Below are positions 18,133-62,220 of a DNA stretch of 64,000 nucleotides, one piece after another. Position 1 is the first letter of the stretch; the number at the start of each line of letters is the position of its first letter. Origin of the DNA: Myxococcales bacterium (GTDB lineage: Bacteria > Myxococcota_A > Polyangia > Polyangiales > Ga0077539); assembly GCA_016793325.1 (NCBI GenBank), contig JAEUKI010000056.1, positions 4,221 to 68,220 on the forward strand, read 5' to 3'. The position numbers and the translations under genes are program-made. Below the pieces are notes generated by a model. The model was not told the origin of the DNA and searched no databases. It saw only the letters and a list, made by a program, of their open reading frames with translations.

Positions 18133-18305
18133 TTCTGCGCGGCGCGACCGACGCTCGCCGATTGCACACGACGCGCACGAAATCGCGAAAGTCCCTGGAA
18201 TCTCGCTGAGCAAGCGGTCATCGCTCATTCCGTTCTGAAAGCTCCACCGCAAGCGTGGTACGAAATCTTCGCGACGGGTACTGTCTACCCGAAGCGATCG
18301 CCGCG

Positions 18306-23398: not shown

Positions 23399-23932
23399 AT
23401 GAGCGACGACGAGCGAGACACTCGAAGCGGTCCGCGCTCGCCTCGGTGGTTCGCCGCGGGCGCGCTCGGGCTCGGGCTGCTCGTCGGCGTCGCGCTCTAC
23501 TCGGGCGTCGCCACGAGCGGCGGCGCGACGTGCCCATCGCGCTGGCTCTTCGACGCCCCCTGCGCCGGCTGTGGGATGACTCGCGCGTTCGAAGGGCTGC
23601 TTCACGGCGACCTCGGCTACGCGCTTCGCGCGAACGTCGTTTCGCCGGTGCTGTTCACGCTCGCCGCGATCGTCGCGCTCGTGTTCGGCGCGCAGCTCGC
23701 GACCGGACGCGACCTCTACCGCGCGCTCGCTGCGCGGAGGCTCGTGCGCGGCGGCGTATCAGCGCTGCTCCTCGCGCTCGTATTGATTGCGTGGGTTAGT
23801 AATCAAATGCGCCACAAGCGCGGCGAAGGTCCACTTCACCTCCGCACGTGGCATCACGAGCACGGGCGAGCCCCGCTCGTCGATCTGCCGGGGGGCGAGC
23901 GGCAGGGTCAATCGCGGCCGGTCGCGCACTGA
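23399..23932 (+). CDS. DUF2752-domain membrane protein
   Basis: Start MSDDERD. Signature CPSRWLFDAPCAGCGMTRAF (CPxxxxxxxPCPGCGxTRA of DUF2752) followed by TM helices. Confidence 0.75.
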   Translation: MSDDERDTRSGPRSPRWFAAGALGLGLLVGVALYSGVATSGGATCPSRWLFDAPCAGCGMTRAFEGLLHGDLGYALRANVVSPVLFTLAAIVALVFGAQLATGRDLYRALAARRLVRGGVSALLLALVLIAWVSNQMRHKRGEGPLHLRTWHHEHGRAPLVDLPGGERQGQSRPVAH

Positions 23933-25803: not shown

Positions 25804-25861
25804 ACGGAGGCTTTGCAAGCGGGACTCGGTACCAAGGAAACGCCTGTCGGCGCTCGTTCAT

Positions 25862-30736: not shown

Positions 30737-33265
30737 ATGAACGAGAGGGATATCAGCCGAGAGCGCGTACGAGAGAGGGATCTCGTGCTCGCCCCCAACG
30801 AGTTCGCGTTCATCTCCGACGAGACGAAGGGAAACATCAACGTCTACGTCGGCCCCCACAAAACAAGCCTCGCGAACACCGATCAGCCCGTGGTGTTCGA
30901 CTACGAGACCAAGCGCTTCAAGCGCGTCACGCTCGAGCAAGCGATCGGCGTGCTCGCGGTCGCGCCCGAGGGCTGGTATCTCGTGCTCAAGAACCCCGCG
31001 CGAGACAGCTCGCACCCGAGGACGGGCGCGCTCAACAACCTCCCCGAGCTCGACGTCGGTCGAAAAGTGAACACGCCCGGCCCGGTGTCGTACGCGCTCT
31101 GGCCGGGGCAGATGGTGAAGGTCGTTCCGGGGCACAGCCTGCGGTCCAACCAGTACTTGCTCGTGCGCGTGTACGACGAGGAGGCCGCGAAGACGAACTG
31201 GGCGAAGGCGGTGATCAAGCGCCAGACCGCGCCAGGGACGGACCCCGTCGCAGAGGGCTCCGAGCAGGGCGTCTTCGATCCGAGCAAGAACGTGCCCGAG
31301 CTCACGATGGGCAAGCACCTCGTGATCCGCGGGACGGACGTGTCGTTCTACATTCCTCCGACGGGCGTCGAGGTCGTCGCGGACGAGCAGGGCAAGTACG
31401 TCCGCGACGCGGCGACGCTCGAGCGGCTCGAGTACACGATCCTGCTCGATGAGGACGGAAACAAGCGGTTCATTCAGGGTCCCGCGGTCGTGTTTCCGAG
31501 GCCGACCGAGACGTTCATCGAGCGCAACGGGAGCCGAAAGTTTCGTGCGATCGAGCTGACCGAGATCGCCGGCGTCTACGTGAAGGTCATCGCGCCCTAC
31601 GAAGAGAACGGCCGCGCGTACAAGGTCGGCGACGAGCTGTTCATCACGGGCCGCGAGCAGATGATCTACTTCCCTCGCCCCGAGCACGCGCTCATTCGCT
31701 ACGGCGGACGCGAGATCCACTATGGCATCGCGATCCCTGCCGGCGAAGCGCGGTACGTCCTCGACCGCACCCAGGGAAACATTCGCCTCGAGCGCGGACC
31801 GACGGTGTTTCTCCCGGACCCGCGCCGCGAGGTGATCGTCCGCAAGGTGCTCGATCCCAAGACGGTCGACCTGTTGTTTCCCGGCAACAAGGACGCGCTC
31901 GAGTACAACGCGAGGCTGTCGGCGCTCAAGCGCTCGGAGGCCGGCAACGAGTTCGTGATCGACGACGAAGCGCGGCAGGTCGCGCAGCGCTCGCGCGACA
32001 TGGCCGCGCCCGAGAAGAGCAAGGCAGAGGCCGCGTTCGTCGGCGACGCCGTCACACGAAATCAAACGTTCACCCCGCCGCGGACGATCGTCCTCGACAA
32101 TCGCTTCGAGGGAGCCGTCTCGATCGACCTGTGGACGGGCTACGCGGTCCTCGTGAAATCCCGCTCGGGAAAGCGACGCGTCGAGGTCGGCCCCACGGTG
32201 TTTCTGCTCGAGTACGACGAGAACCTCCAGGCGATGGAGCTCTCGACGGGCACGCCCAAGTCCGACGACAAGGTCATGCGCACCGCGTACCTGCGCGTGA
32301 AGAACAACAAAGTGAGCGACCTCGTCGAGGCCGAGACGTCGGACCTCGTCCGAGTCCACATGCGCCTCTCGTATCGGGTCGACTTCGAGGGCGACGCGTC
32401 GCAGTGGTTCGGCGTCGAAAACTACGTCAAATTCCTCACCGATCACCTGCGGTCGCTCTTGCGTCACGCGGTCAAGCAGCACGGCGTCGAGCCGTTCTAC
32501 GGCAACGCGGTGAGCATCATCCGCGACGTGATCCTCGGCCCGCAGGGCGAAGACGGAAAGCGACCCGGCCGGCGCTTCACCGAGAACGGGATGCGCGTCT
32601 ACGACGTCGAGGTGCTCGGCGTCTCGATCGGCGACGAGGCCATCGCGAAGCTCCTCGTCGAAGCGCAGCACGCGTCCGTGCAGCAAGCGCTCGCGGTCGC
32701 GAGCGAGCGACGGCGCCTCGAGCTCACGCGAGCCCGTGAGTCCGCGCGGCAAGAGTCTGCGGCGCTCGAGTCGCAGACCAAAGTGCAGCTCCTCGAGATC
32801 GAAGGGCGCGAGGTCGAGCGCAAGCACGCCGTCGAGCTCGCGCGGATCAAGGCCGAGTCCGACACGCGCGAAAACCGCCACAAAGCCGAGGTTGCGCTTC
32901 AGTCGTTGCTCGACGCGGTGTCCGCGGCGCAGCTCGCGCGCGAGCGAGCGCGGGCGCAGTTCGACGACGAGGTCGCGCGGGCCGAGCTCGATCGAACGGT
33001 GCGCGAGCTCGACGCGCAAGTGCGCGCGACGGCGGAGAAAGCCAAGGCGTTTACGCCCGATCTCGTGGCGGCGCTGCAGGCGTTCGGCGATCGCGCGCTC
33101 GCGGCGAAGATGGCCGAGAGCATGGCCCCGCTCGCGATCCTCGGCGGAGAGAGCGTGGCGGACGTCCTGCGTCGGCTGCTCGAAGGGACGTCGGTCGCCG
33201 ATGTCCTCGCGAAGGTCACCGCGAAATCCGAGGCTCGCGCGTTGCCCGAGGGCTCGAACTCGTAG
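30737..33265 (+). CDS. Major vault protein (MVP)-like protein: N-terminal MVP repeats + shoulder (SPFH-like) + long C-terminal coiled coil
   Basis: Strong SD aaggagg before ATG. At least 5 tandem ~55-aa repeats with the MVP-repeat GP core (VYVGPHKTSL; NTPGPVSYALWPGQMV cf. MVP GPxSFxLxPGE; IQGPAVVFPRP; ERGPTVFLPDP; EVGPTVFLLEY). ~150-aa heptad-rich cap-helix-like C-terminus. Size 842 aa (MVP ~850-900 aa). Confidence 0.75.
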   Translation: MNERDISRERVRERDLVLAPNEFAFISDETKGNINVYVGPHKTSLANTDQPVVFDYETKRFKRVTLEQAIGVLAVAPEGWYLVLKNPARDSSHPRTGALNNLPELDVGRKVNTPGPVSYALWPGQMVKVVPGHSLRSNQYLLVRVYDEEAAKTNWAKAVIKRQTAPGTDPVAEGSEQGVFDPSKNVPELTMGKHLVIRGTDVSFYIPPTGVEVVADEQGKYVRDAATLERLEYTILLDEDGNKRFIQGPAVVFPRPTETFIERNGSRKFRAIELTEIAGVYVKVIAPYEENGRAYKVGDELFITGREQMIYFPRPEHALIRYGGREIHYGIAIPAGEARYVLDRTQGNIRLERGPTVFLPDPRREVIVRKVLDPKTVDLLFPGNKDALEYNARLSALKRSEAGNEFVIDDEARQVAQRSRDMAAPEKSKAEAAFVGDAVTRNQTFTPPRTIVLDNRFEGAVSIDLWTGYAVLVKSRSGKRRVEVGPTVFLLEYDENLQAMELSTGTPKSDDKVMRTAYLRVKNNKVSDLVEAETSDLVRVHMRLSYRVDFEGDASQWFGVENYVKFLTDHLRSLLRHAVKQHGVEPFYGNAVSIIRDVILGPQGEDGKRPGRRFTENGMRVYDVEVLGVSIGDEAIAKLLVEAQHASVQQALAVASERRRLELTRARESARQESAALESQTKVQLLEIEGREVERKHAVELARIKAESDTRENRHKAEVALQSLLDAVSAAQLARERARAQFDDEVARAELDRTVRELDAQVRATAEKAKAFTPDLVAALQAFGDRALAAKMAESMAPLAILGGESVADVLRRLLEGTSVADVLAKVTAKSEARALPEGSNS

Positions 33266-35056: not shown

Positions 35057-37057
35057 TCAGCTGACGGTCTTGACGCAGCGGAAGCCCACGTTTTCAAGAA
35101 GCAGTCGCTCGGCCGGCGAGCACGCGGCGCTCGCGCAACCAGCGTTGCGATACAGCAGACCCGCGGGCGCCGCGGTTCCTGCTGGGAGCGTCTCGCGCAA
35201 CGGCAGGCCACGGACCGTTCGATAGGGCTGCTGCCAGTTGGGCGTGCGCCCGTCGTCGTCGCGAAAGCTCGACGAGGTCCACTCTTGTCCGTTCGTCGCG
35301 AGCCCGGCGATCTCGTCTTGAACGGTGTCTGCCGCGAACGACCCCGCCGGCAACAGTCGCCCTGCGCCGCCCGCGAACGCAGGGAGCCCCGCGGGCGCTG
35401 GGCCATCCCACGGCTCGACGCGAGGTTGCCCGCGGCGACCCGCAAATTCCCACTGTTCTTCGGTGGGAAGCGAGCCCCCGATCGCCGCGCAATACGCCGT
35501 CGCGCTCGACCACGCGACGTTCACCGCGGGAAGCGCCGCGCGCGCCTCGGGCAGCGACGGAACCCACGGTGGGATCATCAGCCTGTGCTCGTGGTTCGAC
35601 TCGCTCCACGCCTCGTACTCGCCGAACGTGACCTCGCGCTTCATGATCCGAAACGCGGGACCCGAGAACTGCACGTGCGCGCTCGGAAGAAAGCCTCCGC
35701 GCGTGTCCGTCTCTGCCGCGCGACCGAGCGTCACGGGCGCAGCGGGCGCGGCGACGAGCGCCCAGCGCGTCGGGTCTTCGGGCGGCGGAGTCCACACCGC
35801 GCGCGGGCTCGAGGCGTCCGAGCCGGCAGCGACCACGGCGCCAGCGTCGGCCGCAGCGTCGAGCGCGGCGTTGCGGCGCTTCACCCAGAGGGCGCCGACG
35901 ACGGAGCCGCCGACGGCGACGACGAGAAACACGCCCACAAAAACAAGCCACGATCGCGATCCGCCCTCTTGATCGTGGTCGTGATCATCGTCGGATTCTT
36001 CGGGCGCGTCGGACCTGCGCGCCGTCGATTTGCGAAGCTCCTCGACGGGCGTCTCGACCGTCTCGGTGTCGTTCGCCTCCGAGCCGCTTGATTGTTTGTG
36101 TCCCCACGGCCCCGCGAGGTCGGGCACGGCGACGATGGGCCTCGAGACGCCCGTCGTTCGACGCGGTCGAATGTGCTCTTCGAGCGCTTGTTCGACCGCC
36201 TCGAGCAACGCGGCGACGGTGTCGTACCGTTGGTCGCGGTGCATCGCGAAGGCCTTCTCGAACACGGGGTCGAGCGACGGCCCGAGGTCGGCGCGGAGCG
36301 CAGCGAGCTTGGGGCGCGTCGGGTCCAAGATCTTTCCGATGACCTCTTGATAGGTCGAGCCGTCGAACGCCGCGCGCTGCGCGAGCATCTCGAAGAGCAC
36401 CGCGGCCATCGCGAAGATGTCCGTGCGTCGGTCGATGCTGCGGACGTCGCCGAGCACCTGCTCGGGGGACATGTACTGAATCGAGCCGATGATCTTTCCG
36501 ACCTCGGTGCGGCCGAGCGAGTGCGAGCTGTCCTTGCCCAAGATCCTGGCGACGCCGAAGTCGAGGACCTTGACCATCACGGCGGGCGATCCGATGCCCT
36601 GCACCATGATGTTCTCGGGCTTCAAATCGCGGTGGACGATGTTCTTCTGGTGCGCCGCGAGCACGCCCGCGCACGCCTGACGAAACACCGAGAGCGCTTC
36701 GTCCGCGGACAGAAGCCTTCGCTCCTCGGAAGCACGATCGAGGACCTTGCGCAGCGGCTCGCCCTCGACGAACTCGCTGACGAGGTACGGAACGCCGTGG
36801 TCCTCGCCGAATTCTAGGAGCGCCACGACGTTGGGGTGCGAGAGAGCGGCAGTGGCCTGGCCTTCTTGCCAGAAGCGACGCACGACCTCTTCGTTCGCGA
36901 GGTGCTGCTGGAGGAGAAATTTGACGGCGACGTGCCGCCCGAACGCCTTCGCGTCGGACGCGATCCACACCTCGCCGAACGCTCCCTCGCCGAGCTGCCG
37001 CTCGAGCGTGTAGCGCGTGGCGATGACGGCGCCTGTCTTTCGGTCAGCGTCAGCCAT
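35057..37057 (-). CDS. Ser/Thr protein kinase fused via a TM helix to a C-terminal FGE-sulfatase (formylglycine-generating-enzyme-like) domain
   Basis: Start MADADRK (M81 of ORF). Kinase motifs GEGAFGEV, VAVK, HRDLKPEN, DFG. TM WLVFVGVFLVVAVGGSVVGALWV. C-terminal FGE-like motifs (REVTFGEYEAWS, NVAWSSATAYCAAIGGSLPTEEQWEFAGRRG, GFRCV). Confidence 0.85.
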   Translation of the reverse strand: MADADRKTGAVIATRYTLERQLGEGAFGEVWIASDAKAFGRHVAVKFLLQQHLANEEVVRRFWQEGQATAALSHPNVVALLEFGEDHGVPYLVSEFVEGEPLRKVLDRASEERRLLSADEALSVFRQACAGVLAAHQKNIVHRDLKPENIMVQGIGSPAVMVKVLDFGVARILGKDSSHSLGRTEVGKIIGSIQYMSPEQVLGDVRSIDRRTDIFAMAAVLFEMLAQRAAFDGSTYQEVIGKILDPTRPKLAALRADLGPSLDPVFEKAFAMHRDQRYDTVAALLEAVEQALEEHIRPRRTTGVSRPIVAVPDLAGPWGHKQSSGSEANDTETVETPVEELRKSTARRSDAPEESDDDHDHDQEGGSRSWLVFVGVFLVVAVGGSVVGALWVKRRNAALDAAADAGAVVAAGSDASSPRAVWTPPPEDPTRWALVAAPAAPVTLGRAAETDTRGGFLPSAHVQFSGPAFRIMKREVTFGEYEAWSESNHEHRLMIPPWVPSLPEARAALPAVNVAWSSATAYCAAIGGSLPTEEQWEFAGRRGQPRVEPWDGPAPAGLPAFAGGAGRLLPAGSFAADTVQDEIAGLATNGQEWTSSSFRDDDGRTPNWQQPYRTVRGLPLRETLPAGTAAPAGLLYRNAGCASAACSPAERLLLENVGFRCVKTVS

Positions 37058-38895
37058 CACTCGATGAATACACGCACACGAATATCGTTGCTCGCCCCGT
37101 CGCGCCACGCGACGGCGAAGCGCCCGGTTCCGCCGAAGGCCGCCGACGGCGTCTCGCGGTTGCCGCCCGCGGGCCCGCCCTCGTCCGCGCTCGCGTTGAG
37201 CTCGAAGTCCGCGGTGCTCGCGTTGAAGCGATTGACGGCCTGAGAGCCATCGACGCGCGCGAGTCGACCGCGGATCGTTCCGCCGGCGTTTTGCCAAGCG
37301 ACGAGGACGGTGCCGCCGGGGCTCATCGCGACGGTCGGCGCGGACTGGTCACCCTCGACCGTGGTTGGAGCGAGTCGATCGGCGCCCATCGGCGCGAGCG
37401 CTCCCGAAAACGCGCGCCAGCGCACGGCGGAGCCGCTGTTGTCCATCGGGTCCGACATGCTCGTGTCGCGCCACGCGACGGCGACGTTGGTTCCGTTGGT
37501 CGCGATCGCGACTTGATCTTGATCACCTGTGGTCTGTGTCGACGCGACGGCAGGTGCGCCCATGAGCGTTCCTGCGCTCGAGATCTTCGCGACGTACACG
37601 TCCTTCGCGCCGACGCCGCCGCTCACCCACGCGGCGGCGAAAGAACCGTCGCTCAGGCCCACGACGACGGGCGAAGACGCGGTCGTCGATCCCGGCATTC
37701 CCGCTGGGACGAGCGGCGCGTCGGCCATCGGCGCCGCGGGCATCGCCGCGAGCGTCGTGCTCGACGTTCGAAGCACACCCGCAGTCGCGTCCTCCCACAC
37801 GAACAAGACGCGCGTGCCGCCGATGGCGACCGATGGATTGATCATCCCGAGCATTCCGCTGCCGGCGGTAGTCGCATTGACCAGCATCTGTTGCGGCGTC
37901 GGCGCGTCGAAGCCCGTCTGCGCGAAGCCGTTGATGTCGAAAACCGTGTTGGTGCGCTCGACCGTCTGCCACACCGCCGCGAATCCCGCGGCCGAAGCAG
38001 CGACGCGAACGGTCTTCTGCTCCCCGCGAGCCATCGAGTCGAGCGGGAGGTCCCTCGCTAGAATAGCGGGGCTTGTAATCAAGCGCCCGTTGGGGTCGAG
38101 CATGCGCACTTGCGGGTCGTCTGTCGCTCCTGCGGGGCTGAACCCGATGACCATGTTCTGCGACGCGGCCCACGCGACGCTCGGCTGGTCCTTGCGGCCC
38201 ATGATGGAGGTCGCGACGCTGAGCTCGGGGATGCGGCAGCGCGCGTTGCAGTACTCGTTGGGCATGCCCTCGTCGCAGATTTCGTTGCTCGAGATCATCG
38301 TGTCGCCGCAGCGGCCGATGTCCGCGACCTCTTGCATCTCGACCGGAACGCTGACGGTCTGACCCGCGTTGGCCATGATCGTCGCGCAGCCCGAGCCGAG
38401 CAGGCGGCGCACGGTGCTGCCGCCGGGCCCCGGTGCGCTGCCCGAGCCTTCGATGAGCACGATGTACGTCTTGCCACCGGGGACGCGCTGCATCTGCATC
38501 GTCCCAGTTTTGGGAAAGCACGTGTCGACGGGGGTCGCTTCACCGTTCTCCATGCGGAGCTGCGCCCAACGCGTGGTGTCGCATCGCTCGTGCGGCGGAA
38601 CGCTTCGTCCCGCGACCGTCGCGTACGGATCGGTCCCCGTCAGTCGCCCCGTCATGGTGTCGCACGCGATGTCACCCGTGCGCTCGAACACGCGGAGGTG
38701 AAGCTGCTCGTCCAAGCGATCGAGCGTGATCTGCGGAACACGCACGCGCATCGCGAGCGGCGCAGGCGCGTCCGTTGCGGCAGGGGCACATCCCGCGGCG
38801 AGCGCGCTGGCGCTGGCGAGCAACGACAAGAGCGAGCGCGTTGACGCGGCGCGATGCGCCCCCGCGATCCGCGCCTCGGGGCGCGAGCGTTCCAT
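37057..38895 (-). CDS. Hypothetical secreted lipoprotein (613 aa), translationally coupled (TGATG overlap) to the STK-FGE gene
   Basis: Lipobox LLSLLASASALAAGC. Beta-rich repetitive body (A/G/T-rich with VAWRD/VAWQN repeats). Confidence 0.6.
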   Translation of the reverse strand: MERSRPEARIAGAHRAASTRSLLSLLASASALAAGCAPAATDAPAPLAMRVRVPQITLDRLDEQLHLRVFERTGDIACDTMTGRLTGTDPYATVAGRSVPPHERCDTTRWAQLRMENGEATPVDTCFPKTGTMQMQRVPGGKTYIVLIEGSGSAPGPGGSTVRRLLGSGCATIMANAGQTVSVPVEMQEVADIGRCGDTMISSNEICDEGMPNEYCNARCRIPELSVATSIMGRKDQPSVAWAASQNMVIGFSPAGATDDPQVRMLDPNGRLITSPAILARDLPLDSMARGEQKTVRVAASAAGFAAVWQTVERTNTVFDINGFAQTGFDAPTPQQMLVNATTAGSGMLGMINPSVAIGGTRVLFVWEDATAGVLRTSSTTLAAMPAAPMADAPLVPAGMPGSTTASSPVVVGLSDGSFAAAWVSGGVGAKDVYVAKISSAGTLMGAPAVASTQTTGDQDQVAIATNGTNVAVAWRDTSMSDPMDNSGSAVRWRAFSGALAPMGADRLAPTTVEGDQSAPTVAMSPGGTVLVAWQNAGGTIRGRLARVDGSQAVNRFNASTADFELNASADEGGPAGGNRETPSAAFGGTGRFAVAWRDGASNDIRVRVFIE

Positions 38896-38958: not shown

Positions 38959-39657
38959 TCATCGCGCCAGGCTCGGGTCCGACGGCAGCGGAACCCAGGC
39001 AAATCGCTGCGCGGACCGGCATCGCGGCGCGTCGACCACCACCGTTCGAACGCTCTGCGGCAGCCATCGGGCCGCCGAGAGCCGCTGCCACTCGGCCGCG
39101 CTCGGCACGAACAAGTCGATGTGGTGGCCGATGATCGCACCTCCGCCGTCGACCGCGACGAAGCATCCGTCGTGCAGCGTTCCGTCGGGCAGGGGCATGC
39201 CCGCGAGCTCGGCCATCTCCACGGTGTGACCGATCGGGATGTACCTGCGATCGACCGCCAGCGAGCGATACGGAACGAGCGAGTAGCCCTGCACGCCGAT
39301 TCCGTAGGGATAACTCCCGCGATCGACCTCGACGAAGCACGCGCGAGCGCCTTCGCGACCGTCCCAGTTGAGCAAGCGATCGTCCCAGGTGAGGCCCGTT
39401 CCTTCCATCGACAAGTCCGCGACAAAGTTGGGACACGCGTAGGTGATCGGGTGCCCGCCCCGCGCGAACAGCGGCGCGGCGCGGCGGTCGCGCTCGCCTG
39501 CGCGCTCGCGCGCGATCCAGTACTCGGTGAGCTGCCAGCGGCCCGGATAGCGAATGGGGCCGTCCGCGCGCGACGCGGGATTCGCGACGAGCAGGGAGAG
39601 AAATAGAGCGAGCACGACGGAGGTGTGCTGCGCTGTGTCGTTTCGTGCGTGACGCAT
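38959..39657 (-). CDS. 3D-domain (MltA-like) lipoprotein/cell-wall binding protein
   Basis: Start MRHARND. Signal VVLALFLSLLVANPASRA. 3D-domain conserved acidic-residue pattern (RYIPIGHTVEM...LHDGCFVAVDGGGAIIGHHIDLF). Confidence 0.7.
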   Translation of the reverse strand: MRHARNDTAQHTSVVLALFLSLLVANPASRADGPIRYPGRWQLTEYWIARERAGERDRRAAPLFARGGHPITYACPNFVADLSMEGTGLTWDDRLLNWDGREGARACFVEVDRGSYPYGIGVQGYSLVPYRSLAVDRRYIPIGHTVEMAELAGMPLPDGTLHDGCFVAVDGGGAIIGHHIDLFVPSAAEWQRLSAARWLPQSVRTVVVDAPRCRSAQRFAWVPLPSDPSLAR

Positions 39658-39700
39658 CGCGCGGTGGATTCTCGCAGAAAAGTCGTTCACAACCAGTGTC

Positions 39701-40276
39701 ATGGAAGCCCGGAGGAGCGAGGCGCACGACCGTGCGCTGGTCATTGCGGCGACGCCCGTGATCGAGACCGAGCGACTCGCGCTCGTCCCGATGACGTTGT
39801 CGATCGTCGAGGCGGTCATGCTCGATCGACGCGAGGACGCGCGGCGGCTCATCGCGGCGGACATGCCGAAGCGATGGCCCGGACGAGCGCTCGTCGAGCG
39901 CGCGTTCTCCGCCTCGCTCGACCGCATTCGCGCGGCGCCCGAGCGCAGATTGTGGGGCGATCGGCTGATGATCGTGAAGGGCGAGCGCCCGAGGGTCGTC
40001 GGCAGCGTCGTGTTTCACGGGTTTCCCGAGGACGGGATCGCCGAGGTGGGCTACGGCGTGGACGAAGACGTTCAACGCATGGGGTACGCGACCGAAGCGA
40101 CGCGCGCCGCGGTCGACTGGGCGCTCGAGCAAGCTCCCATCCGCGCGGTGCGCGCGACGACGTTTCCGTGGCACCGCGCGTCGGTGCGAGTTCTCGAAAA
40201 AGTGGGGATGCGCAAGGTCGCCGTCGACGAGCACGACGTGCTCGGCGAGCAGTGGATCTTCGAGCGCGTTCGCTGA
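39701..40276 (+). CDS. GNAT family N-acetyltransferase (RimJ/RimL-like, Acetyltransf_3)
   Basis: TERLALVPMT...GYGVDEDVQRMGYATEATRAAVDWA...RASVRVLEKVGM pattern. Confidence 0.75.
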   Translation: MEARRSEAHDRALVIAATPVIETERLALVPMTLSIVEAVMLDRREDARRLIAADMPKRWPGRALVERAFSASLDRIRAAPERRLWGDRLMIVKGERPRVVGSVVFHGFPEDGIAEVGYGVDEDVQRMGYATEATRAAVDWALEQAPIRAVRATTFPWHRASVRVLEKVGMRKVAVDEHDVLGEQWIFERVR

Positions 40277-40388: not shown

Positions 40389-40450
40389 GCAGCGCGCATC
40401 GCCCGTGGCGCGAGGGCGCAAAGTGCGCCATGGTCGCCCCGCGCAACGAG

Positions 40451-41164
40451 ATGACCACGCAACGAACCTTCGCGGCCCGATGGCTCGGTCGCGTCCCGTA
40501 CGAGCGCGCGACGGCGCTGCAGCTCGAGCACTTCGAGCGCCGAAAGCGCGGCGAAGGCACGGACACGCTCCTCTTGCTCGAGCACGACCCGGTCCTCACG
40601 CTCGGTCGCAGCGCAGACGGGTCGAACGTCGTGATCAGCGACGAAGAGCGCCTCGCGCGCGGCGTAGACCTCGTCTCGACGACGCGCGGCGGGGACGTGA
40701 CCTACCACGGCCCGGGGCAGCTCGTGGCGTATCCGATCTTCGATCTACGGCCGGATCGATGCGACGTTCGAAAATATGTGCGCGACCTCGTCGAGGTGAT
40801 GTCTCGGCTGTGCGCGGACTTCGGCGTCGGCGCAGGGCCGCACTCGAACATGATCGGCGCGTGGGTCGACCTCGACGCGCCCCGCGACAAGTGGCCCGGC
40901 GACGCGGCCGCGAAGCACCCTGCGAAGATCGGCGCGATCGGCGTGAAGATCTCGCGCTGGATCACGATGCACGGCTTCGCGCTCAACGTCCGGACGAAGC
41001 TCGATGACTTCGCCATGATCGTCCCGTGCGGAATCGCCGAGCACCCAGTGTGCTCGCTCGAGTCCATCGGCGTGAGTGACGCGCCGGGACTCGCCTGGTT
41101 CGCTCGGCGCGCGGTGGGACACTTCGAAGACGTCTTCTCGGCGCGCTGCGTCGATGGTCCATGA
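40451..41164 (+). CDS. lipB: Lipoyl(octanoyl) transferase
   Basis: Start MTTQRTF. LipB motifs (RWLGRVPYERA, HDPVLTLGR, GGDVTYHGPGQLVAYPI, KIGAIGVKISRWITMHGFALNV with catalytic Cys region PCGI). Confidence 0.85.
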   Translation: MTTQRTFAARWLGRVPYERATALQLEHFERRKRGEGTDTLLLLEHDPVLTLGRSADGSNVVISDEERLARGVDLVSTTRGGDVTYHGPGQLVAYPIFDLRPDRCDVRKYVRDLVEVMSRLCADFGVGAGPHSNMIGAWVDLDAPRDKWPGDAAAKHPAKIGAIGVKISRWITMHGFALNVRTKLDDFAMIVPCGIAEHPVCSLESIGVSDAPGLAWFARRAVGHFEDVFSARCVDGP

Positions 41165-42660
41165 CCGCGATCGATCGCGACGATCCTCGGGACGATCTCG
41201 ACGCGCTCGAACGACGCGCGCTCGACGACCGCGACGCGCTCGAAGCGCTGCTCGTTCGGTGCGCCGCGATCGCCCGTGAATCGCACCTGTTTTCGCCGGA
41301 CCCCGACGCCTTCGCGCGGTGCGGTCGCGCGATCGAGCTCTTCGACCTCGCCTCGCTCGACGGCGCCCCGCTCGGTGAGCGCTCGCGCGAAGCGGTCGCG
41401 CAACTCTCGAGCGCACTCGGTCGTCGCGCCCTCGCTGATGGTGCCCCCGAGCTCGCGGTGACGCAGCTCGAACGCGCTCGGAGCGCAGCGCTGCGAGCGC
41501 CGAGCGAACGCGCGGTCGTGCTCCACGATCTCGCGCAGTGCTACGAAGTCCTCAGCGACGCGGCGACCGCGGAGGCTCGTTGGCGCGAGTGCCTCGATGC
41601 GTGCGCCGAGAGCGCGCCGTCGGTCGAGCGCGATTTCTACGAGCGGACGTCCGCCGAGCGGCTCGCGTCGAGCGCTCGATCGCGAAACGATCGCCTCGAG
41701 GCGCAGCGATTCGAGCGCATCGCGGACGCGTGCGACGACCGCGAGATCGAGCGCGAGGTCGCGCAAAACGCGGAAGCCGAGCGTTTTTTCAGCGCGGCGT
41801 GGGACGGGACAACGCCGCCACAGATCGCCCACGAGGCGCGGTGGATCGAGCGCTCGCAGGGCGTGGTTCACGCGACACGACCAAGCGAAGTCACGCGCGC
41901 CGAGGACCTCGTCGCGACCGTCGAGTGTCCGATCATCTTCGGTCCCGCGCGAGACGATCGCTGCCTATGCGGCGCGGTCGAGGGACGATCGCAGCGCGGC
42001 GTTGTGTGCGATCGGTGCGGCGTCGAAGTGCAGCGCGCGGCGCGGAGGCGAGCGCGGTTCGGGCACATCGAGCTCGCCGAGCGGCGCTTCCACCCGTGCG
42101 CGCTCGTCGACGGCGCGTTCGGCTCGCTCGTGTCGCTCGCGCTCGACCTCGACCCTGCGCGGCTGGCGTTGGTGCGCTCGCGCGCTCGGTGCATTCGCTA
42201 CCTCGCGCGCTCGCCGCGCGGGGTCGACACGTTGGCGCCGGACTCCGAAGAGCTCGCGGCGTTCGACGCGGGCCGAGGAGACCCAGCGTTCAACGTCGCG
42301 ACCGGCGACGAGGCGATCATGGACGCGCTCGCGTCGCTCGATGCCCGGGGCGCGCGTGACGAGGTGCAGCTCGAGCTTCGCGCGCTTCGCGCACACAAGA
42401 CCGCCCATCGAGCGGACGTTCGTTCGCGCGTCGATTGGCTCGCGGCGCGGGGCGAAGCGCTCGCGCTGCTCGAAGCGGGCGCGTCGCTGTTGATCGAGCG
42501 CGTTCCCGTGCTGTCGCAGCCGCGGCTCGCCGAGATGGGGCGCAGCGACGCGGTGACGCCATTGTACGAGGCGCTGCTCGGGGCCCAGAGCGGCCACGAA
42601 ATCGACGTCGCGCTCGCGGCGCTGGTGCGTGCGTTTGCAGCGACGCCAACACACGCGTGA
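41161..42660 (+). CDS. Hypothetical protein containing an RNA-polymerase beta-prime N-terminal zinc-ribbon (ZBD)-like segment; start overlaps lipB stop (ATGA)
   Basis: Residues ~250-310: AEDLVATVECPIIFGPARDDRCLCGAVEGRSQRGVVCDRCGVEVQRAARRRARFGHIELA. E. coli RpoC 58-105: [57 protein letters not shown]. Identical CxC-12-CxxC spacing. The rest of the protein is helical with no RNAP similarity. Confidence 0.65.
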   Translation: MTAIDRDDPRDDLDALERRALDDRDALEALLVRCAAIARESHLFSPDPDAFARCGRAIELFDLASLDGAPLGERSREAVAQLSSALGRRALADGAPELAVTQLERARSAALRAPSERAVVLHDLAQCYEVLSDAATAEARWRECLDACAESAPSVERDFYERTSAERLASSARSRNDRLEAQRFERIADACDDREIEREVAQNAEAERFFSAAWDGTTPPQIAHEARWIERSQGVVHATRPSEVTRAEDLVATVECPIIFGPARDDRCLCGAVEGRSQRGVVCDRCGVEVQRAARRRARFGHIELAERRFHPCALVDGAFGSLVSLALDLDPARLALVRSRARCIRYLARSPRGVDTLAPDSEELAAFDAGRGDPAFNVATGDEAIMDALASLDARGARDEVQLELRALRAHKTAHRADVRSRVDWLAARGEALALLEAGASLLIERVPVLSQPRLAEMGRSDAVTPLYEALLGAQSGHEIDVALAALVRAFAATPTHA

Positions 42661-43711
42661 CGGTGGGTGTCGCCGCACCGTTGTAGTGAAGGTCCATCGC
42701 GGCCCAGCCGTTAGCGCGGTCGGGTACGGCGATGTCGTCCGCGCCGTTCGATGGACATTGGCTGGCGTCGGCGTGAAGTCGTGACCTTGCGCGACGCGAC
42801 GCGATGACTAGTCTCCGAACCCATCGGTTCTGGTCACTCATCGAGGCGGTATCGCCGACGACGGAGCAGCCAAGAAGAGGCGCGGATCGGTGATCGAAGC
42901 CACCGATTCACGCGTCCCCGAAGCACGACAACCGCCGTCGACCACGGCCACTTTGAAGAGAGCGACCATGATCAATCGAAGCACCCTGGGTCGGACGAGC
43001 GCTGCTCGCCGACCCTCGGCGGAACACATTCGCGCTCCGCCCCGTTGAAGCAAACGCTAACTCGACGCTTCGGCGACGAGTCGTTCGTCACTGAATCGAA
43101 CCAACGACGACAGAGTTGCCCGCGACGAGCGGGCGCAGAAGGATTCGAGAGTACGGAGTCTGCACGAGCTACATGGGCCACACGATCGCTGCCGAGACGA
43201 CAGAGGGACTTCGCGCCCGACGTCGCGCGACGCAGAGAGCGTAAATGGTCAAAGGAGCAGTGGTTCATCTGGCGCAGAGCCAGCCACGCTCCGTCGGGCC
43301 GCGCGAGTTCGGCGACGTCTCCGGTGGGAGCAGTCGCGCGCGGGATTCGATGCCCTCCTTCAACCACCTTTTGGGCATCTTTGAATCACAAAAGCCCTAC
43401 CCCGACGCGCCGAACAATCGATGGACCTCCAACGCGCTCATTCTTCTGAACACACAACACGAAGATCGAACTCGCGCACGGCGCCCGCCAACTCCGACAT
43501 ATGGCTCTGATCGGAGAGCGGCGCCCGCGAGGGACGACTTCGACACGACGCGCAAGCGACTCGAGACACGACGACCGAGCCTCCCCCGCTCGGACGGCGG
43601 TTCGACGCGCTTCATCCCGTCGTCTGCCCTCCGAAACCGCGCGGATGTGCGTCCCCCACGGCGCGCGGCGTCGCGCAGGACCCACGAAGGCTGCGGTATA
43701 CAGACACGCCC

Positions 43712-46700
43712 GTGCAACGCTCGACTCTCGCTCCTGTGCTCAATGACGTCGGCCTCTGGCGTGCGCTCACAGAGCGCGATCGCGTGGAGTGCACGGACGA
43801 GCAGATCGCTGCGGCGTTCGACGCTGTCGCATCGCGGTCGGTGCGGCGACGCATCGCGCTGCTCGGGCTCGCTGCGACGGCGGCGATGACCCACCCGAGC
43901 GCGCTCGTTCGCGCCTCTGCCCATCGCGCGCTCATCGGCGCTCGTGGAACGCGCGCGCACGCCGCCATCGCCCGAGGCCTCGACGACGACGACGGCGCCG
44001 TCCGCCGCGCCGCGGTCGAATCGCTGCGCGCGCTCGCGAGCGCCGAACCCGAGCGGTGGATCCACGCCGTCGTGCACAGCCGAGCGGACGTTCGTGAGAT
44101 CGCCGTCGAGCTCGGGCCACCGCCGCGCGCCGAGGTGTTCGAACTCCCGTTGCTCGCGGACGAGGCGGCGCGCCCGAAGGTCCTGCCGCGCATCGAGCGC
44201 TGGGCCAAGGCGTCGACGTCGGTTCCCGCGTTCGCGGTCCCCGCGTTGCTCGACTCGACCGTGCGCGGATGGCTGCCGTTGTCGACGGCGCGAGCGATCA
44301 TCGACCGCGTTCCGACGGATCGATTGGGCCAGTGGCTGTTCGACCAAGCCGGACGAGGGCACCTCACCGATCCCGCCGAAGTCGCAGCGACCAACGCCGA
44401 CTCGACAGACCCGCTCGACGCGCTGCTCGAGCTCGAGTGGTCCCGTGAAGCGCCCACGAAGATTCCGTCCGACGCCCTGTGGTGGAAGTTGATCGGCCCC
44501 GTCGCCGATCAGTTCGACCAACTTCGACTGCGCTTCGCCGCGTCTGCGTGGGCGCTCGCGAAGCGCAAGGGCTACTGGTCCGCCTCGGGCCTCGCGGCGT
44601 GCGTGCTCTTTGCGCCGCAGTCGCTGCGCGGCGTCGAGATCCCTCCCGATTTCGTCGAGACCATCGTCGCCGCGAGCGTTCACGCGCAGCAGGCCTCGAT
44701 TCTGCTCGCGACGCGGCCTTCGATCGAGCGCATCGACGCGATTCGCGCCAAGCGCTCGACGCTCGATCGAGACGAAGTGCTCGCGGTCGCGATCGCGGCG
44801 ACGATGCAGCCGGGCTCTCGCTTCGAGGTGGCCTTGCACGCGCTCGGTCGAGATCGCCTCGTCGACGCGGTCGTTGCGTTTCCACGAGCGGCTGCGCTGC
44901 TGTTCGTCGATCCGGCGAGCTCGCTGGGAGCGTGCATCGATGTGCTCGATCTCGCGCGAGCGCGCTCGCCCGAGGCGGTCACCGAGCTCGCAGACCGCCT
45001 GTTGACCCTCGGCGGCGTCGAGCCCTTCTCAGTCTTCGACCTCGTCGGTCCGAGCGCTTCGCACGCGGCGCTGAAAGCCCACTGCGAGCGGCTCGCGCCG
45101 ACCCATCGGTCCATCGACCCACGAATTCAACTATGCCGTTCGATCGCAGGCGAAGCGCTCCCGACGCTGCTCGACGCGATCTTGTCTCGGCCCGACGTCG
45201 ACCCGCTGTTGCTTCGCTGGCTGCTCGCGGCGCTCGAGACCGAGCCGTGCGACGCGCTCGCGGCGTACATCACGCGCCGCGCCGCGCCCAACACACGCGC
45301 GATGCGCGCGCTCCTCGCGGCGATCGAGTCCTCGCATGCGCCCGCGGTCGCGCTCGCGCGCGTCGCGCAGAGCGCGGTCGAAGAGCGCGTCGCCCGAGCC
45401 GATCCAGCCCGAGAGCGCGCCGACGAGGCGATCGAACCGCCCGCAGCGACGGTCCCGGCTGTTGTCTCGGCGCCCGATGTCGCGCCGCCGGACGGGCAAG
45501 CGCTCGACGACTTGACCTACGTCTCGGATGAAGAGCTCGAAGATTTGGTCAAGCCATTCTTGCGCTGGCCGGTCACGGGCGTCGCCGCTGCGCTCGAGCT
45601 CCGAGAGTCACCTTCGCCCAACCCGTGGCTGTGCGCTGCGCTTCTGCGCGCGCACGACGCCGCTGAGCACGTCGCTCGCGTGCTCGCGACGTTTTGGCCG
45701 ACGGACCCCGAGACGCTCGCGACGCTCGACGAGCTCGTGGCCTCCAAGCTCGGGGCCTTCGATGACCTCGGGATGCTCGCGTCCGCGTGGCTCTTTCGCT
45801 GGGAGAAACACGCGCGGCGCTTCGTCGAGCTCGCCACGCAGTCCGGGTCGCTCGCGCAGGTGCTCGCCACGGTCGATCGATGGCCCGAGCCCCTCGCGGC
45901 TCGCGCGTGGAGCGCCGCCGCGCGCGTGCTCGAGACCACGGCGGCCCGCGGCGGGTCCGACGCCGTGAGCCCCGAGCTGTGGACGCCGATCGCGCGACTT
46001 GCGATCGACGAGATGTCCGGAGACGACGTTCCGCTCGTGCGAGACGAAGCGGCGCGATTTCTCGCGGCCGCGTCTCGAGCGCCGGCGTCGCGCGCGATCA
46101 TCGAGCCGCTCCGCGCCGACGCCACCGCGCTCCGTCCGTCGCTGAGCGCAGAGCGATCCGCGCTGCTCGGCGCCTGGCTCGATCGCGTCGCGACCGAGCG
46201 CCGTCCGCTCGCGACCGAGATCCTCGCGCGTCGACAACAACTCGAGAAGCTCCGACACGGACCGAAAGAAGCTGCGGCCGAGCTCGTCGCCGAGCTCGCG
46301 ACGTCCGCCGACGGTCGAGCGCTGATCTTGTACGCGCTCGAGCAAGAGCCGCGACCGCGCGCGTTCGACGAGCTCAACGCGGAGGTCGCGCGATGGCGGG
46401 GCGCGCTCGCGGCGAAGGTCGACGAGGTCCTCGCCACGAGGCCCGTGGCGCTCGCGGTCGACGTCGAGCTCGCCCGCGCGAAAGCGGGAGATCCCGACGC
46501 GTGGGCGCGCGCCGCGAAGCGCCTCTTCGAGTGCGACGAGCTCGTCGACGCGCGAACGATTCACGCGGTAGCGAGCGACGAAGCGCAGCGCAGCGAGCTC
46601 GCGTTCGCGTGGCTCGACGCGCGCTCTGCGTCCGTGCGGCACTGGGCGATCGAGCAGGCGCTCGTGTACGGGGACGTCGCGGGCAGCGCGCTCTCGACGC

Positions 46701-48793
46701 CCGAGCGCGCGCCGCTCGTGATCGCGAAGGTCGAGGCGCTCTTGTTCGATCTCGGGCCGAGCAAGGACGAGCTGCGACGGCGCGCCGCGCGCTGGCTGTG
46801 GCTGCGAGGGATCACGACGGGCTTCGTCCTGCTCGCGCAACACCAGATCAACGCGCCTCCCGGCGCGCCCGACTGGATCGCGACGGCGACGGACACGCAG
46901 CTCGAATCGCTCGTCGACGCGGCGATGACCGCGGGAAACTCCGTGCTGCCAGAGACGTGGATCGTCGATCTCTTGCGCGCTCCATCGATCGGGTTGCTCG
47001 TCGCGGTCGACGCCTGGTCAGCGCTGTTGCAGTGGGCGAGCACCGCGCCTTCGCGGCAGGCGGCGATCAACGAGCTCAATCGCGTGCGTCTCTTTCGCGG
47101 AGCGCGCGCGGCGAAGCTCCGCGCGGTCGCGCGGGTGTTCGCGTGGGGCGTCGAGGTGGGCCTGGTGCTCACGGGCCGCGCGATGAGCGTGCAGCTCGCG
47201 CGCGATCAAGCGCTCGGGTATACGCGGCTCGACGAGGACCGAGTGTTCGTGAGCGCGCTGCCGCTGTTGCGCGGCGAGCGCTTCGGCCGCGCCGTGGTCG
47301 AAGGGCTCTTGCTCCACGAGTTTGGACACCATCGATATCACCGCGGCGACGAGCAGCGCGCCGCGTGGGATCAGGGCTTTCGCGAGGGAATCGGCCCGTT
47401 GCTCAACCTCGTCGCCGACGAGCACCTCGAGCGCAACTTGCGCGCGCTCGACACCGAGTACGGCGATCGACTGAAGCGGCTCGACTCCTATGCGTTTCAG
47501 CACATGAGTCGGCCGCTCGCCGTGGCGACGCTGTTCGAGGTGTTGCGAGGCGATTTGCTGTCAGTGCTCACGTCGACCGAGCTCCTCTTCGCGCAGGATC
47601 CCGCGAGCGTGGTGCTCGAGCACGGGCGACTCTTGCAAGCGCTCGAGCGCTCGGGATCGAGCTTCGCTCGGTGGGTGCGCGCGCTGCGGATGGGGCTCGG
47701 CGACCGGCACGGCGACGAGAAGGTGTCTCGCGCGCTGGCGCTGTTTTCGGGGACGAAGTTTCGCAAGAGCACCATGGGCGAGTTGCTCGAGATCGCGCGA
47801 AAGGTCCGGGCGATCTTCGGCGACGAGTGCCGCCTTCTCAACGTCGTCGCGTCGCACGAGGACGTCGGTCACGGCGAAGAGGGCGAGCTCGATCGCTTGG
47901 GCGAAGGGATCTCGGACGAAGAGATTCGCCGTGAAGTCGACCGCATCACCAACCCGCGCAAGAGCGACGACGACGGGCTGAGCACCATGCGGCCCGGCGG
48001 AAAGCGCTGGCTCAACGTCACCGAGGGAACGGACTTCGACCTGATCACCCAGGTCGTTCGCGTGAAGTACGAGCCGTCCAAGCACCGCGCGCTCTCCGAG
48101 CGCGTTCGACGCTCCGCAGGGACGCTTCGCTCGTACCTCGAGCGGCTGGGGCTGCACCTTCAGCCGCAGCGATTGCGACTGCGCGGCCGACGCGTGGACG
48201 CGCCGCGGACGCGCGCGCTCGTCACGCGGGGAGACCCTCGCGTGCTCATCGCGCGCGAGATCCAGATCAAGACGGACCTCTTCATCGGCGTGGTGATCGA
48301 CTGCTCGGGCTCGATGGCTGGCGGCGAGAACATGCCGCGCGCCAGGCTCTTCGGCGCGCTGATCGCCGAGGCTGCGCGCGCGATGCCCGGCGTCGACGTT
48401 CGGATCTTCGGCTTCACCGATCGCGTGATCTACGACGCAGGAGACTCGACGCACCCCGCGGTGCACGCGCTCGAAGCGGGCGGAGGCAACAACGACTCGG
48501 GCGCGCTCTGGCACGCGGCGAACGTCGCGCGTGCGTCGAATCGGCGAGCAAAATTGCTGGTGATGATCTCCGATGGGCTCCCCACCGAGTGCTCCGCAGC
48601 GTCGCTCAAGCACCTCGCCGTCGAGCTCACGCGCCGACACAAGATGTGCTGCGCGCAGATCGCAGTGCAGCCCCTGCCCGAGGTGCTCTTTCCGAACTAT
48701 GTCGAGTGCGACGGGCCGGACACGGACGTGGTGGTCAAGCGCTTCGGGCGCATCATCGAGGGGCTGGTGAAGCGGGCGATGGGCGTTCCATAG
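43712..48793 (+). CDS. Giant (1693 aa) HEAT/PBS-lyase-repeat protein with C-terminal zincin-like HExxH module and von Willebrand factor A (vWA, MIDAS-complete) domain
   Basis: GTG start. N-terminal HEAT-like repeats (DDDGAVRRAAVESLRALAS; SRADVREIAVELG). Helical solenoid body. HEFGHH motif at ~aa 1200 with downstream ADEHLE. C-terminal vWA with DCSGSMAG...ISDGLPTE (DxSxS..T..D MIDAS). Confidence 0.75.
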   Translation: MQRSTLAPVLNDVGLWRALTERDRVECTDEQIAAAFDAVASRSVRRRIALLGLAATAAMTHPSALVRASAHRALIGARGTRAHAAIARGLDDDDGAVRRAAVESLRALASAEPERWIHAVVHSRADVREIAVELGPPPRAEVFELPLLADEAARPKVLPRIERWAKASTSVPAFAVPALLDSTVRGWLPLSTARAIIDRVPTDRLGQWLFDQAGRGHLTDPAEVAATNADSTDPLDALLELEWSREAPTKIPSDALWWKLIGPVADQFDQLRLRFAASAWALAKRKGYWSASGLAACVLFAPQSLRGVEIPPDFVETIVAASVHAQQASILLATRPSIERIDAIRAKRSTLDRDEVLAVAIAATMQPGSRFEVALHALGRDRLVDAVVAFPRAAALLFVDPASSLGACIDVLDLARARSPEAVTELADRLLTLGGVEPFSVFDLVGPSASHAALKAHCERLAPTHRSIDPRIQLCRSIAGEALPTLLDAILSRPDVDPLLLRWLLAALETEPCDALAAYITRRAAPNTRAMRALLAAIESSHAPAVALARVAQSAVEERVARADPARERADEAIEPPAATVPAVVSAPDVAPPDGQALDDLTYVSDEELEDLVKPFLRWPVTGVAAALELRESPSPNPWLCAALLRAHDAAEHVARVLATFWPTDPETLATLDELVASKLGAFDDLGMLASAWLFRWEKHARRFVELATQSGSLAQVLATVDRWPEPLAARAWSAAARVLETTAARGGSDAVSPELWTPIARLAIDEMSGDDVPLVRDEAARFLAAASRAPASRAIIEPLRADATALRPSLSAERSALLGAWLDRVATERRPLATEILARRQQLEKLRHGPKEAAAELVAELATSADGRALILYALEQEPRPRAFDELNAEVARWRGALAAKVDEVLATRPVALAVDVELARAKAGDPDAWARAAKRLFECDELVDARTIHAVASDEAQRSELAFAWLDARSASVRHWAIEQALVYGDVAGSALSTPERAPLVIAKVEALLFDLGPSKDELRRRAARWLWLRGITTGFVLLAQHQINAPPGAPDWIATATDTQLESLVDAAMTAGNSVLPETWIVDLLRAPSIGLLVAVDAWSALLQWASTAPSRQAAINELNRVRLFRGARAAKLRAVARVFAWGVEVGLVLTGRAMSVQLARDQALGYTRLDEDRVFVSALPLLRGERFGRAVVEGLLLHEFGHHRYHRGDEQRAAWDQGFREGIGPLLNLVADEHLERNLRALDTEYGDRLKRLDSYAFQHMSRPLAVATLFEVLRGDLLSVLTSTELLFAQDPASVVLEHGRLLQALERSGSSFARWVRALRMGLGDRHGDEKVSRALALFSGTKFRKSTMGELLEIARKVRAIFGDECRLLNVVASHEDVGHGEEGELDRLGEGISDEEIRREVDRITNPRKSDDDGLSTMRPGGKRWLNVTEGTDFDLITQVVRVKYEPSKHRALSERVRRSAGTLRSYLERLGLHLQPQRLRLRGRRVDAPRTRALVTRGDPRVLIAREIQIKTDLFIGVVIDCSGSMAGGENMPRARLFGALIAEAARAMPGVDVRIFGFTDRVIYDAGDSTHPAVHALEAGGGNNDSGALWHAANVARASNRRAKLLVMISDGLPTECSAASLKHLAVELTRRHKMCCAQIAVQPLPEVLFPNYVECDGPDTDVVVKRFGRIIEGLVKRAMGVP

Positions 48794-62079: not shown

Positions 62080-62220
62080 CGCGGCGGCTGCACTTCGAGC
62101 GTCGGGGCGGACGCGAGCGTGGTCGTAGCACGTGGCCGTTCGCGCACGAAACGTTGGCCGGTCGAGCACGGTCGCCGAACGGCGCCGGGCGTACGCATCG
62201 CACCGGAGGTTCATTCATCC

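Follow-up and report, generated by a model that had tools for sequence, protein, structure and literature searches.

Large RNA polymerase (RNAP) subunits are usually seen as single-copy and indivisible, save for a few well-known splits. Here we describe a gene from an uncultured Myxococcales bacterium that encodes a diverged copy of one part of such a subunit. The gene lies at 41161-42660 on the plus strand of the window, by which we mean the whole 64-kb stretch of DNA that was analysed. It encodes a cytoplasmic, non-catalytic protein with two domains (hereafter the target), of which the first is TPR-like and the second is almost certainly a paralogue of the N-terminal clamp module of the RNAP beta-prime subunit, the rpoC product. 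The window is core chromosome with a GC content of 68.5%, and the base composition of the target open reading frame (ORF; GC1/2/3 = 0.79/0.54/0.83) is coding-normal for the genome. The features of the gene, all on the plus strand, are as follows.

41161-42660, plus strand: target gene, a 499-aa ORF (TPR-like domain and beta-prime N-terminal clamp paralogue)
41161-41772, plus strand: N-terminal all-helical TPR-like domain, residues 1-204
41773-42657, plus strand: paralogue of the beta-prime N-terminal clamp module, residues 205-499, equivalent to about residues 15-310 of E. coli beta-prime
41926-42093, plus strand: zinc-binding domain (ZBD), residues 256-311, with the four Cys, GVE, RxGH and HP invariant in 9/9 family clusters
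42196-42315, plus strand: segment 'PRGxDTLAPDSEEL..DEGRGDPAF', residues 346-385, homologous to beta-prime 'PGxTxL..LLSExEY..YGxxFxAxMGAEA'
42502-42516, plus strand: lid stub 'VPVLS', residues 448-452, equivalent to beta-prime 'V/IPV(I/L)PPD'
42544-42639, plus strand: shortened clamp-helix-type hairpin, helices 462-473 and 478-493, from AlphaFold2 (AF2) secondary structure and alignment

Homology to the beta-prime N-terminus

The ZBD has the sequence CPIIFGPARDDRCLCGAVEGRSQRGVVCDRCGVEVQRAARRRARFGHIELAERRFH. A preliminary description of this DNA had recognised in it the motifs of the RpoC zinc-binding domain and their ligand spacing, and both are borne out: IFGP, CLCG, RGVVCDRCGVEV and RRRARFGHIELA are all found within 41926-42093, and C268 (41962-41964), C270 (41968-41970), C283 (42007-42009) and C286 (42016-42018) follow the CxC-12-CxxC pattern. 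These four cysteines align with the zinc ligands of beta-prime. A phmmer search of the PDB matched beta-prime chains over query residues 255-413 (E 2.9e-15), and all 60 matches listed were beta-prime or gamma. When the family profile was used against the PDB, family positions 225-448 matched beta-prime 18-232 (E 8.6e-20). The NCBIfam model rpoC_TIGR (TIGR02386) matched residues 256-419 (E 7.5e-16, 57.1 bits), and its cut-off of 963.5 bits was not reached. The profile comparison that the preliminary description had proposed, made with hhalign between the family and an alignment of true beta-prime N-termini, gave a probability of 99.9% (E 1e-30) and pointed to beta-prime, not to an unrelated zinc-ribbon family. 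The two were collinear from about residue 205 through 'VPVLS', the counterpart of 'V/IPV(I/L)PPD' with which the beta-prime lid begins. When both were aligned jointly, 29 columns scattered along the shared region proved invariant in family and beta-prime alike; they include SP219, W228, S232, G234, FG260-261, D265, the zinc ligands, GVEV and RxGH, as well as H311, S322, G382, R430 and PV449-450. Judged from these alignments, the similarity to beta-prime covers ~290 residues (about 205 to the C-terminus) and not a 55-residue island. The earlier view of the ZBD as an insertion in an otherwise unrelated protein did not survive, since ~60% of the target belongs to the clamp-module paralogue.

The Pfam model RNA_pol_Rpb1_1 (PF04997) scores the target at 11.8 bits (E 0.15), under its gathering threshold of 39.7 bits. 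Public annotation of the protein is "hypothetical" because this model misses it. Homology to RNA_pol_Rpb1_1 is nevertheless established by the profile-profile comparison and the fold. The sub-threshold Pfam score is what speaks for an unrelated zinc ribbon that resembles the ZBD through chance or convergence. All significant matches, however, are to beta-prime, apart from family members and TPR-type repeat proteins. The profile-profile match at E 1e-30 and the fold comparison led us to reject a chance resemblance, to which we assign next to no probability.

The target is also not a piece of a broken rpoC gene. Pfam detects none of RNA_pol_Rpb1_2 to Rpb1_5 on it; the alignment stops before the catalytic core and the NADFDGD Mg-binding loop, and the protein ends at residue 499. 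That only the 5' part of rpoC is covered and all catalytic domains are missing would fit gene fission, or an rpoC fragment that became a pseudogene and was joined to an unrelated frame. Against such an origin, the ORF is continuous with coding composition, nine clusters conserve its length and 76 positions, and the AF2 model is confident. The target is only 30% identical to the Nannocystaceae beta-prime P0226 (from the same class, not from the same metagenome-assembled genome (MAG)), which has a canonical ZBD and, over this region, shares 59-66% identity with beta-prime of other phyla. No rpoC remainder lies downstream, where the next gene encodes a 1693-aa HEAT/VWA protein, and there is no rpoC elsewhere in the 64-kb window, in which the sole tblastn match to beta-prime is the target itself (41926-42399). 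We therefore rejected fission and pseudogenisation on the grounds of conservation, divergence from the same-class beta-prime and the missing downstream remainder, and consider them highly improbable. The preliminary description had likewise regarded the gene as a free-standing, continuous ORF with no rpoC nearby, and it was right on both counts.

Domain architecture and constraint

The AF2 model of the target has a pLDDT of 90.1 and a pTM of 0.82. Within the clamp module, the pre-ZBD strands, the zinc ribbon, the sheet/helix core that follows it, the PV of the lid and a shortened hairpin are kept. The universally conserved zipper motif PETINYRT.KPE is missing, and its position is taken by a low-confidence loop (residues 240-250) in the model. 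The beta-prime 'HIW' is replaced by 'HP' in the target family. V448-P449-V450 of the lid stub are invariant in the family, and the PV is common to every beta-prime aligned; the lid loop after the stub is 6 residues shorter than in beta-prime and is without the universally conserved 'DGGRFATSDLN'. The clamp-helix hairpin is reduced from ~47 to ~27-37 residues, and the C-terminus of the target coincides with the end of the second clamp helix of beta-prime.

Nine family clusters of 491-505 aa share 76 invariant positions, including all zinc ligands. This constancy of length and of so many positions indicates that the family is maintained by selection. The segment at residues 346-385 is family-specific in its invariant residues, which are R346, R353, P360, E364, L365, D369, G371, D374, G382 and A385. 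Mean pairwise identity varies along the protein as follows.

Residues 1-204, TPR domain: 38%
Residues 205-255: 39%
Residues 256-310, ZBD: 56%
Residues 311-345: 62%
Residues 346-385: 57.5%
Residues 386-443: 42%
Residues 444-499, lid and hairpin: 31%, the lowest

The ZBD is thus among the three best-conserved regions. Its net charge is +5, compared to +6 in real beta-prime.

Distribution, genomic neighbourhood and distant relatives

The family is tiny and limited to uncultured MAGs. Six full-length relatives with 40-100% identity, all from Myxococcales/Polyangiales MAGs, came out of a word-indexed search of 5.8 billion proteins. In an exhaustive profile search that covered 1.84 billion representatives and gave 4,232 matches, the full-length clusters numbered only six (495-505 aa). 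An alignment-based scan of genome contigs recovered the family in only two GTDB species representatives; a single-sequence scan of genome contigs with P0001 gave no match. The taxonomic distribution, which the preliminary description had left to be determined, is therefore confined to a few MAGs of Polyangia/Myxococcales. Among family members for which DNA is at hand, amino-acid identity is at most 59%.

The target is the last gene of a small co-oriented cluster, the other elements of which are given here.

39701-40276, plus strand: GNAT (Acetyltransf_3, RimJ/RimL-like; Pfam Acetyltransf_3 3.8e-18), first gene of the co-oriented GNAT-lipB-target cluster
40451-41164, plus strand: lipB (octanoyltransferase), from TIGR00214 and LplA-B_cat matches
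41161-41164, plus strand: ATGA start/stop overlap of lipB and the target (target ATG 41161-41163, lipB TGA 41162-41164)

The gene upstream of the target encodes a real LipB (TIGR00214, 123.3 bits against a cut-off of 83.55; Pfam LplA-B_cat, PF21948, 1.2e-36). Its mechanical ORF start is 40331, and orthologues of 237-239 aa suggest a start near 40430/40451. The overlap of the target start with the lipB stop, first seen in the preliminary description, is real and recurs in related genomes: the same 4-nt overlap is present at locus L005 and on the P0003 contig, and L001 has a 5-nt gap instead. The GNAT gene has an equal position in L001, L005 and the P0003 contig. Judging by gene order and overlap, lipB and the target are co-oriented and translationally coupled across this small clade of uncultured Polyangia. 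Promoter/terminator, Rfam and tRNA scans around the operon gave nothing informative.

Synteny extends over ~20 kb at every locus seen, in the order MVP-like vault protein, Ser/Thr kinase-FGE, 3D-domain protein, GNAT, lipB, target, HEAT/VWA giant, L25 and Pth. The GNAT-lipB-target linkage is not independent evidence because this whole block is syntenic in a narrow clade. We therefore rejected lipB as a clue to function: the overlap with the target is confined to one fully syntenic clade and says little about function, and no lipB lies beside the distant proteins P0068 and P0036 described below. In 3/3 genome pairs no gene of the block evolves faster than the target, which has 38-41% or 54% identity compared to 55-89% for its neighbours. 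LipB is 80-89% identical between genomes, and 80-84% identical to the L001 and L005 orthologues.

Other genes of the window were noted in passing. The HEAT/VWA gene (43712-48793, plus strand), whose 1693-aa product has weak HEAT and C-terminal VWA matches only, is downstream of the target at every locus and is the second-fastest-evolving gene of the block (55-62% identity). Between it and the target, ~1 kb (42661-43711) is without a supported gene; in L001 and L005 the minus strand of the equivalent interval carries an inward-rectifier-type K+ channel gene (Ion_trans_2/IRK), for which tblastn found no match in the window. The 842-aa vault-like protein (30737-33265, plus strand), a bacterial homologue of the Major Vault Protein with its shoulder and repeat domains (MVP_shoulder 4.9e-26, Vault_3 4.2e-08), is 88-89% identical in related MAGs and among the best-conserved of the block. 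Unusually for bacteria, a 578-aa protein encoded at 2994-4730 (plus strand) matches arrestin N- and C-domains (8.8e-07 and 6.7e-05). The gene at 20890-22665 (minus strand) encodes a full-length DUF6909 protein (E 1.2e-203) and sits among Ser/Thr kinase genes at 18255-19850, 23908-25818 and 35057-37297. ARAGORN placed a tRNA-Thr(GGT) at 61580-61652 (minus strand) inside an ORF with AraC-family domain matches (61102-62214, minus strand); either the ORF start is misplaced or only one of the two predictions can be right.

Among the profile matches were three proteins of very different sequence from the target, P0036 (480 aa), P0041 (383 aa) and P0068 (624 aa), each with a helical/TPR N-terminal domain followed by a beta-prime N-terminal module. 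P0068 is matched by Pfam TPR and PF04997, and P0036 also carries a PF04997 match. All three resemble the target in stopping at the second clamp helix and in having the derived 'GH(I/L)xL...HP' motif. P0036 and P0068 keep the full clamp-helix hairpin, unlike the target, and P0041 is without the middle sub-domain. Homology between their N-terminal domains and that of the target is not detectable (hhalign probability 0.4-36%). A neighbour-joining tree of the target family and the distant members was dominated by long branches and is compatible with one origin or with several. A profile search with the alignment of distant members returned P0068 only, and a metagenome scan with P0036 returned no match.

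The P0036 gene (locus L006 5226-7144, JGI Ga0604625_0017042) follows infC at a distance of 11 nt and has a divergent DPBB_1 gene upstream, and the neighbours of P0068 are TetR and nitroreductase genes; neither has a lipB or GNAT neighbour. The divergent DPBB_1 (RlpA-like) gene at P0036 parallels the likewise divergent 3D-domain gene (38959-39927, minus strand) upstream of GNAT-lipB-target, which may be coincidence. P0103 (ENA; a cluster on 8 contigs) combines a Sel1-repeat N-terminus with a nearly canonical beta-prime N-terminus that ends just past the clamp helices. Its beta-prime part is 70-83% identical to true rpoC, and a metagenome scan with it matched true rpoC only. We treat P0103 as a case apart, namely a fusion of the same kind that arose very recently or an assembly artefact that recurs. 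A further beta-prime N-terminal fragment, P0033 (365 aa), has an exact internal tandem duplication of ~120 residues including the ZBD, which is probably an assembly artefact.

Possible function of the target and comparison with known systems

The beta-prime N-terminal clamp, with its ZBD, zipper, lid and clamp helices, is the busiest regulatory surface of RNAP. Its contacts are sigma, NusG/RfaH, RbpA, put RNA, Q-type antiterminators, promoter spacer DNA and the coupled ribosome. As a free copy, the clamp would be a ready-made competitor or adaptor for one of these partners. We consider it somewhat better than an even bet that the target is a diverged, non-catalytic clamp paralogue joined to a TPR domain and acting as an adaptor or titrating mimic of the ZBD face. 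The structural part of this reading is near-certain; the functional part, taken by itself, is tentative and sooner wrong than right. The target would act as an interaction module, not as a polymerase subunit. Rigid packing of the TPR-like solenoid on the clamp module is predicted (AF2 pTM 0.82); there the solenoid probably stands in for the surfaces of beta and beta-prime under which the module is buried in RNAP, and it may supply a second binding groove. The ZBD and the adjacent core, the most constrained and basic surface, would present an RNAP-like face to a protein or RNA ligand, and the target would serve as adaptor or titrating mimic for a ligand that recognises the beta-prime ZBD region. 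Such a role is plausible because partners of this region are known: putRNA contacts it, including L78/K79 in the KYKRxKHR loop (PMC9378689), as do RbpA and promoter spacer DNA (PMC8956947) and, in coupled complexes, ribosomal S3/S4 and mRNA (10.1101/2020.03.01.972380).

Several observations weigh against this role. Most basic residues of the KYKRxKHR loop are replaced in the target (AVEGRSQR), and therefore known RNA/DNA contacts such as L78/K79 are not preserved. The AF2 alignment was shallow (15 sequences) and held true beta-prime fragments, which biases the C-terminal domain to the beta-prime fold, and six family sequences underlie the predicted interdomain packing. No co-occurring partner gene argues for any ligand. 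The 64-kb window holds no sigma, anti-sigma, NusG-like or other transcription-factor gene near the target, and no neighbour is common to the three lineages examined. The rapid divergence of the target is also compatible with a scaffold that has drifted from any transcription role.

The same module could act through its clamp helices, which in beta-prime are the main docking site of sigma region 2 and the NusG NTD, as a sigma or NusG decoy in which the helices and the ZBD mimic RNAP and sequester sigma or a NusG paralogue in the manner of an anti-sigma factor. In all proteins of this architecture the C-terminus falls exactly where the second clamp helix ends, and isolated beta-prime N-terminal fragments reportedly bind sigma70. 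In the target, however, the hairpin is cut to ~27-37 residues, short of the full antiparallel sigma-contact hairpin (beta-prime 260-309), and with 31% identity is its least conserved part; what we take to be the E. coli sigma70-contact positions R275, E295 and A302 are T, W and E in P0036, and no sigma or anti-sigma gene lies in the window. We regard this decoy as improbable, and favour an adaptor or mimic of the ZBD face over it because the ZBD and core are the most constrained regions and the hairpin on which sigma and NusG dock is the least. The target could instead be an RNAP-associated or assembly factor that docks on the beta C-terminal clamp/flap, or on the core at the site of the beta-prime N-terminus, and thereby modulates the assembly or activity of RNAP. 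The pre-ZBD strands 'FF..W..PP...W..RS.G.V', which are invariant in the family and presumably correspond to clamp elements packed against other segments of RNAP, argue for such docking, as do P219, W228, S232 and G234 (invariant) and F209 and V236 (at least 90%), all common with beta-prime. The TPR domain of the target, though, is predicted to lie on the module and would occupy such surfaces, the genuine beta-prime N-terminus would out-compete a 30%-identical copy, and the target is neither near nor co-conserved with rpoB/rpoC. The chances of an RNAP-docked factor therefore seem poor to us.

A transcription link may also have been lost altogether, leaving a re-purposed scaffold such as a TPR adaptor for GNAT, LipB or translation-related neighbours. 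The GNAT-lipB-target order is conserved at every family locus seen, P0036 lies right behind infC, and the motifs of RNAP function (zipper, lid loop) are lost. The linkage loses force with the narrow synteny and with the differing neighbours of P0068 and P0036, and the target has a single, non-conserved Lys, because of which it is not a lipoylation substrate. We think a scaffold of this kind unlikely, though credible enough to be weighed. Even a re-purposed target would show that the clamp module, given a TPR domain in place of its RNAP neighbours, folds and evolves as an autonomous unit.

The adaptor or mimic of the ZBD face can also be put in a broader form, to which we give a minor share of our belief. 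In this form, the proteins would be natural mimics of an RNAP surface: a ZBD/clamp held by a TPR domain would compete for a factor of the ZBD face and tune transcription or its coupling to translation, and recurrence in at least three unrelated lineages would represent a convergent RNAP decoy. Candidate factors would be the 30S head (S3/S4), structured nascent RNA and RbpA/CarD-class proteins, and for P0036 and P0068 sigma or a NusG paralogue. A regulatory role, if true, would establish a new principle, titration by an enzyme-surface mimic, and would provide a natural reagent for asking which part of the clamp suffices for which interaction.

The architecture is a surprising one for RNAP biology. 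A literature search found no account of a beta-prime N-terminal paralogue or of a TPR-Rpb1_1 fusion, and the combination of a TPR-like domain with a beta-prime N-terminus is apparently undescribed. To our knowledge and in the literature searched, bacteria have so far provided no example of a non-catalytic paralogue of an RNAP surface module. PADLOC gave no match for the target, its neighbours or the distant homologues; the sole PHROGs match was the full-length beta-prime profile, BFVD held no meaningful structural match to the target, and an IMG/VR scan was negative. On these results we rejected an origin in a defence system or a phage.

Compared to known systems, the target most resembles the bacterial RpoC N-terminal clamp (E. 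coli ~15-310), with which it is collinear over ~290 residues and shares the CxC-12-CxxC ribbon, GVEV and RxGHIxL. It differs from RpoC in its ~30% identity, whereas orthologous beta-primes share ~60% or more, in its fast evolution, its shortened clamp helices and the loss of the catalytic domains and of the zipper and lid motifs, and in the 200-residue TPR-like domain fused at its N-terminus. Split large subunits, namely the cyanobacterial/plastid gamma (RpoC1) and archaeal A'/A'', are likewise stand-alone proteins that start with the clamp and ZBD, and gamma was among the matches to the target. Unlike the target, they keep the active-site domains, are highly conserved and have their complementary fragment present. 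The target stops ~300 residues earlier, is highly diverged and has no partner fragment nearby. An engineered counterpart is the stand-alone archaeal RNAP clamp made for Spt4/5 crystals (PDB 3qqc), an artificial fusion of three RNAP segments, whereas in the target the clamp module is fused to a TPR-like domain.

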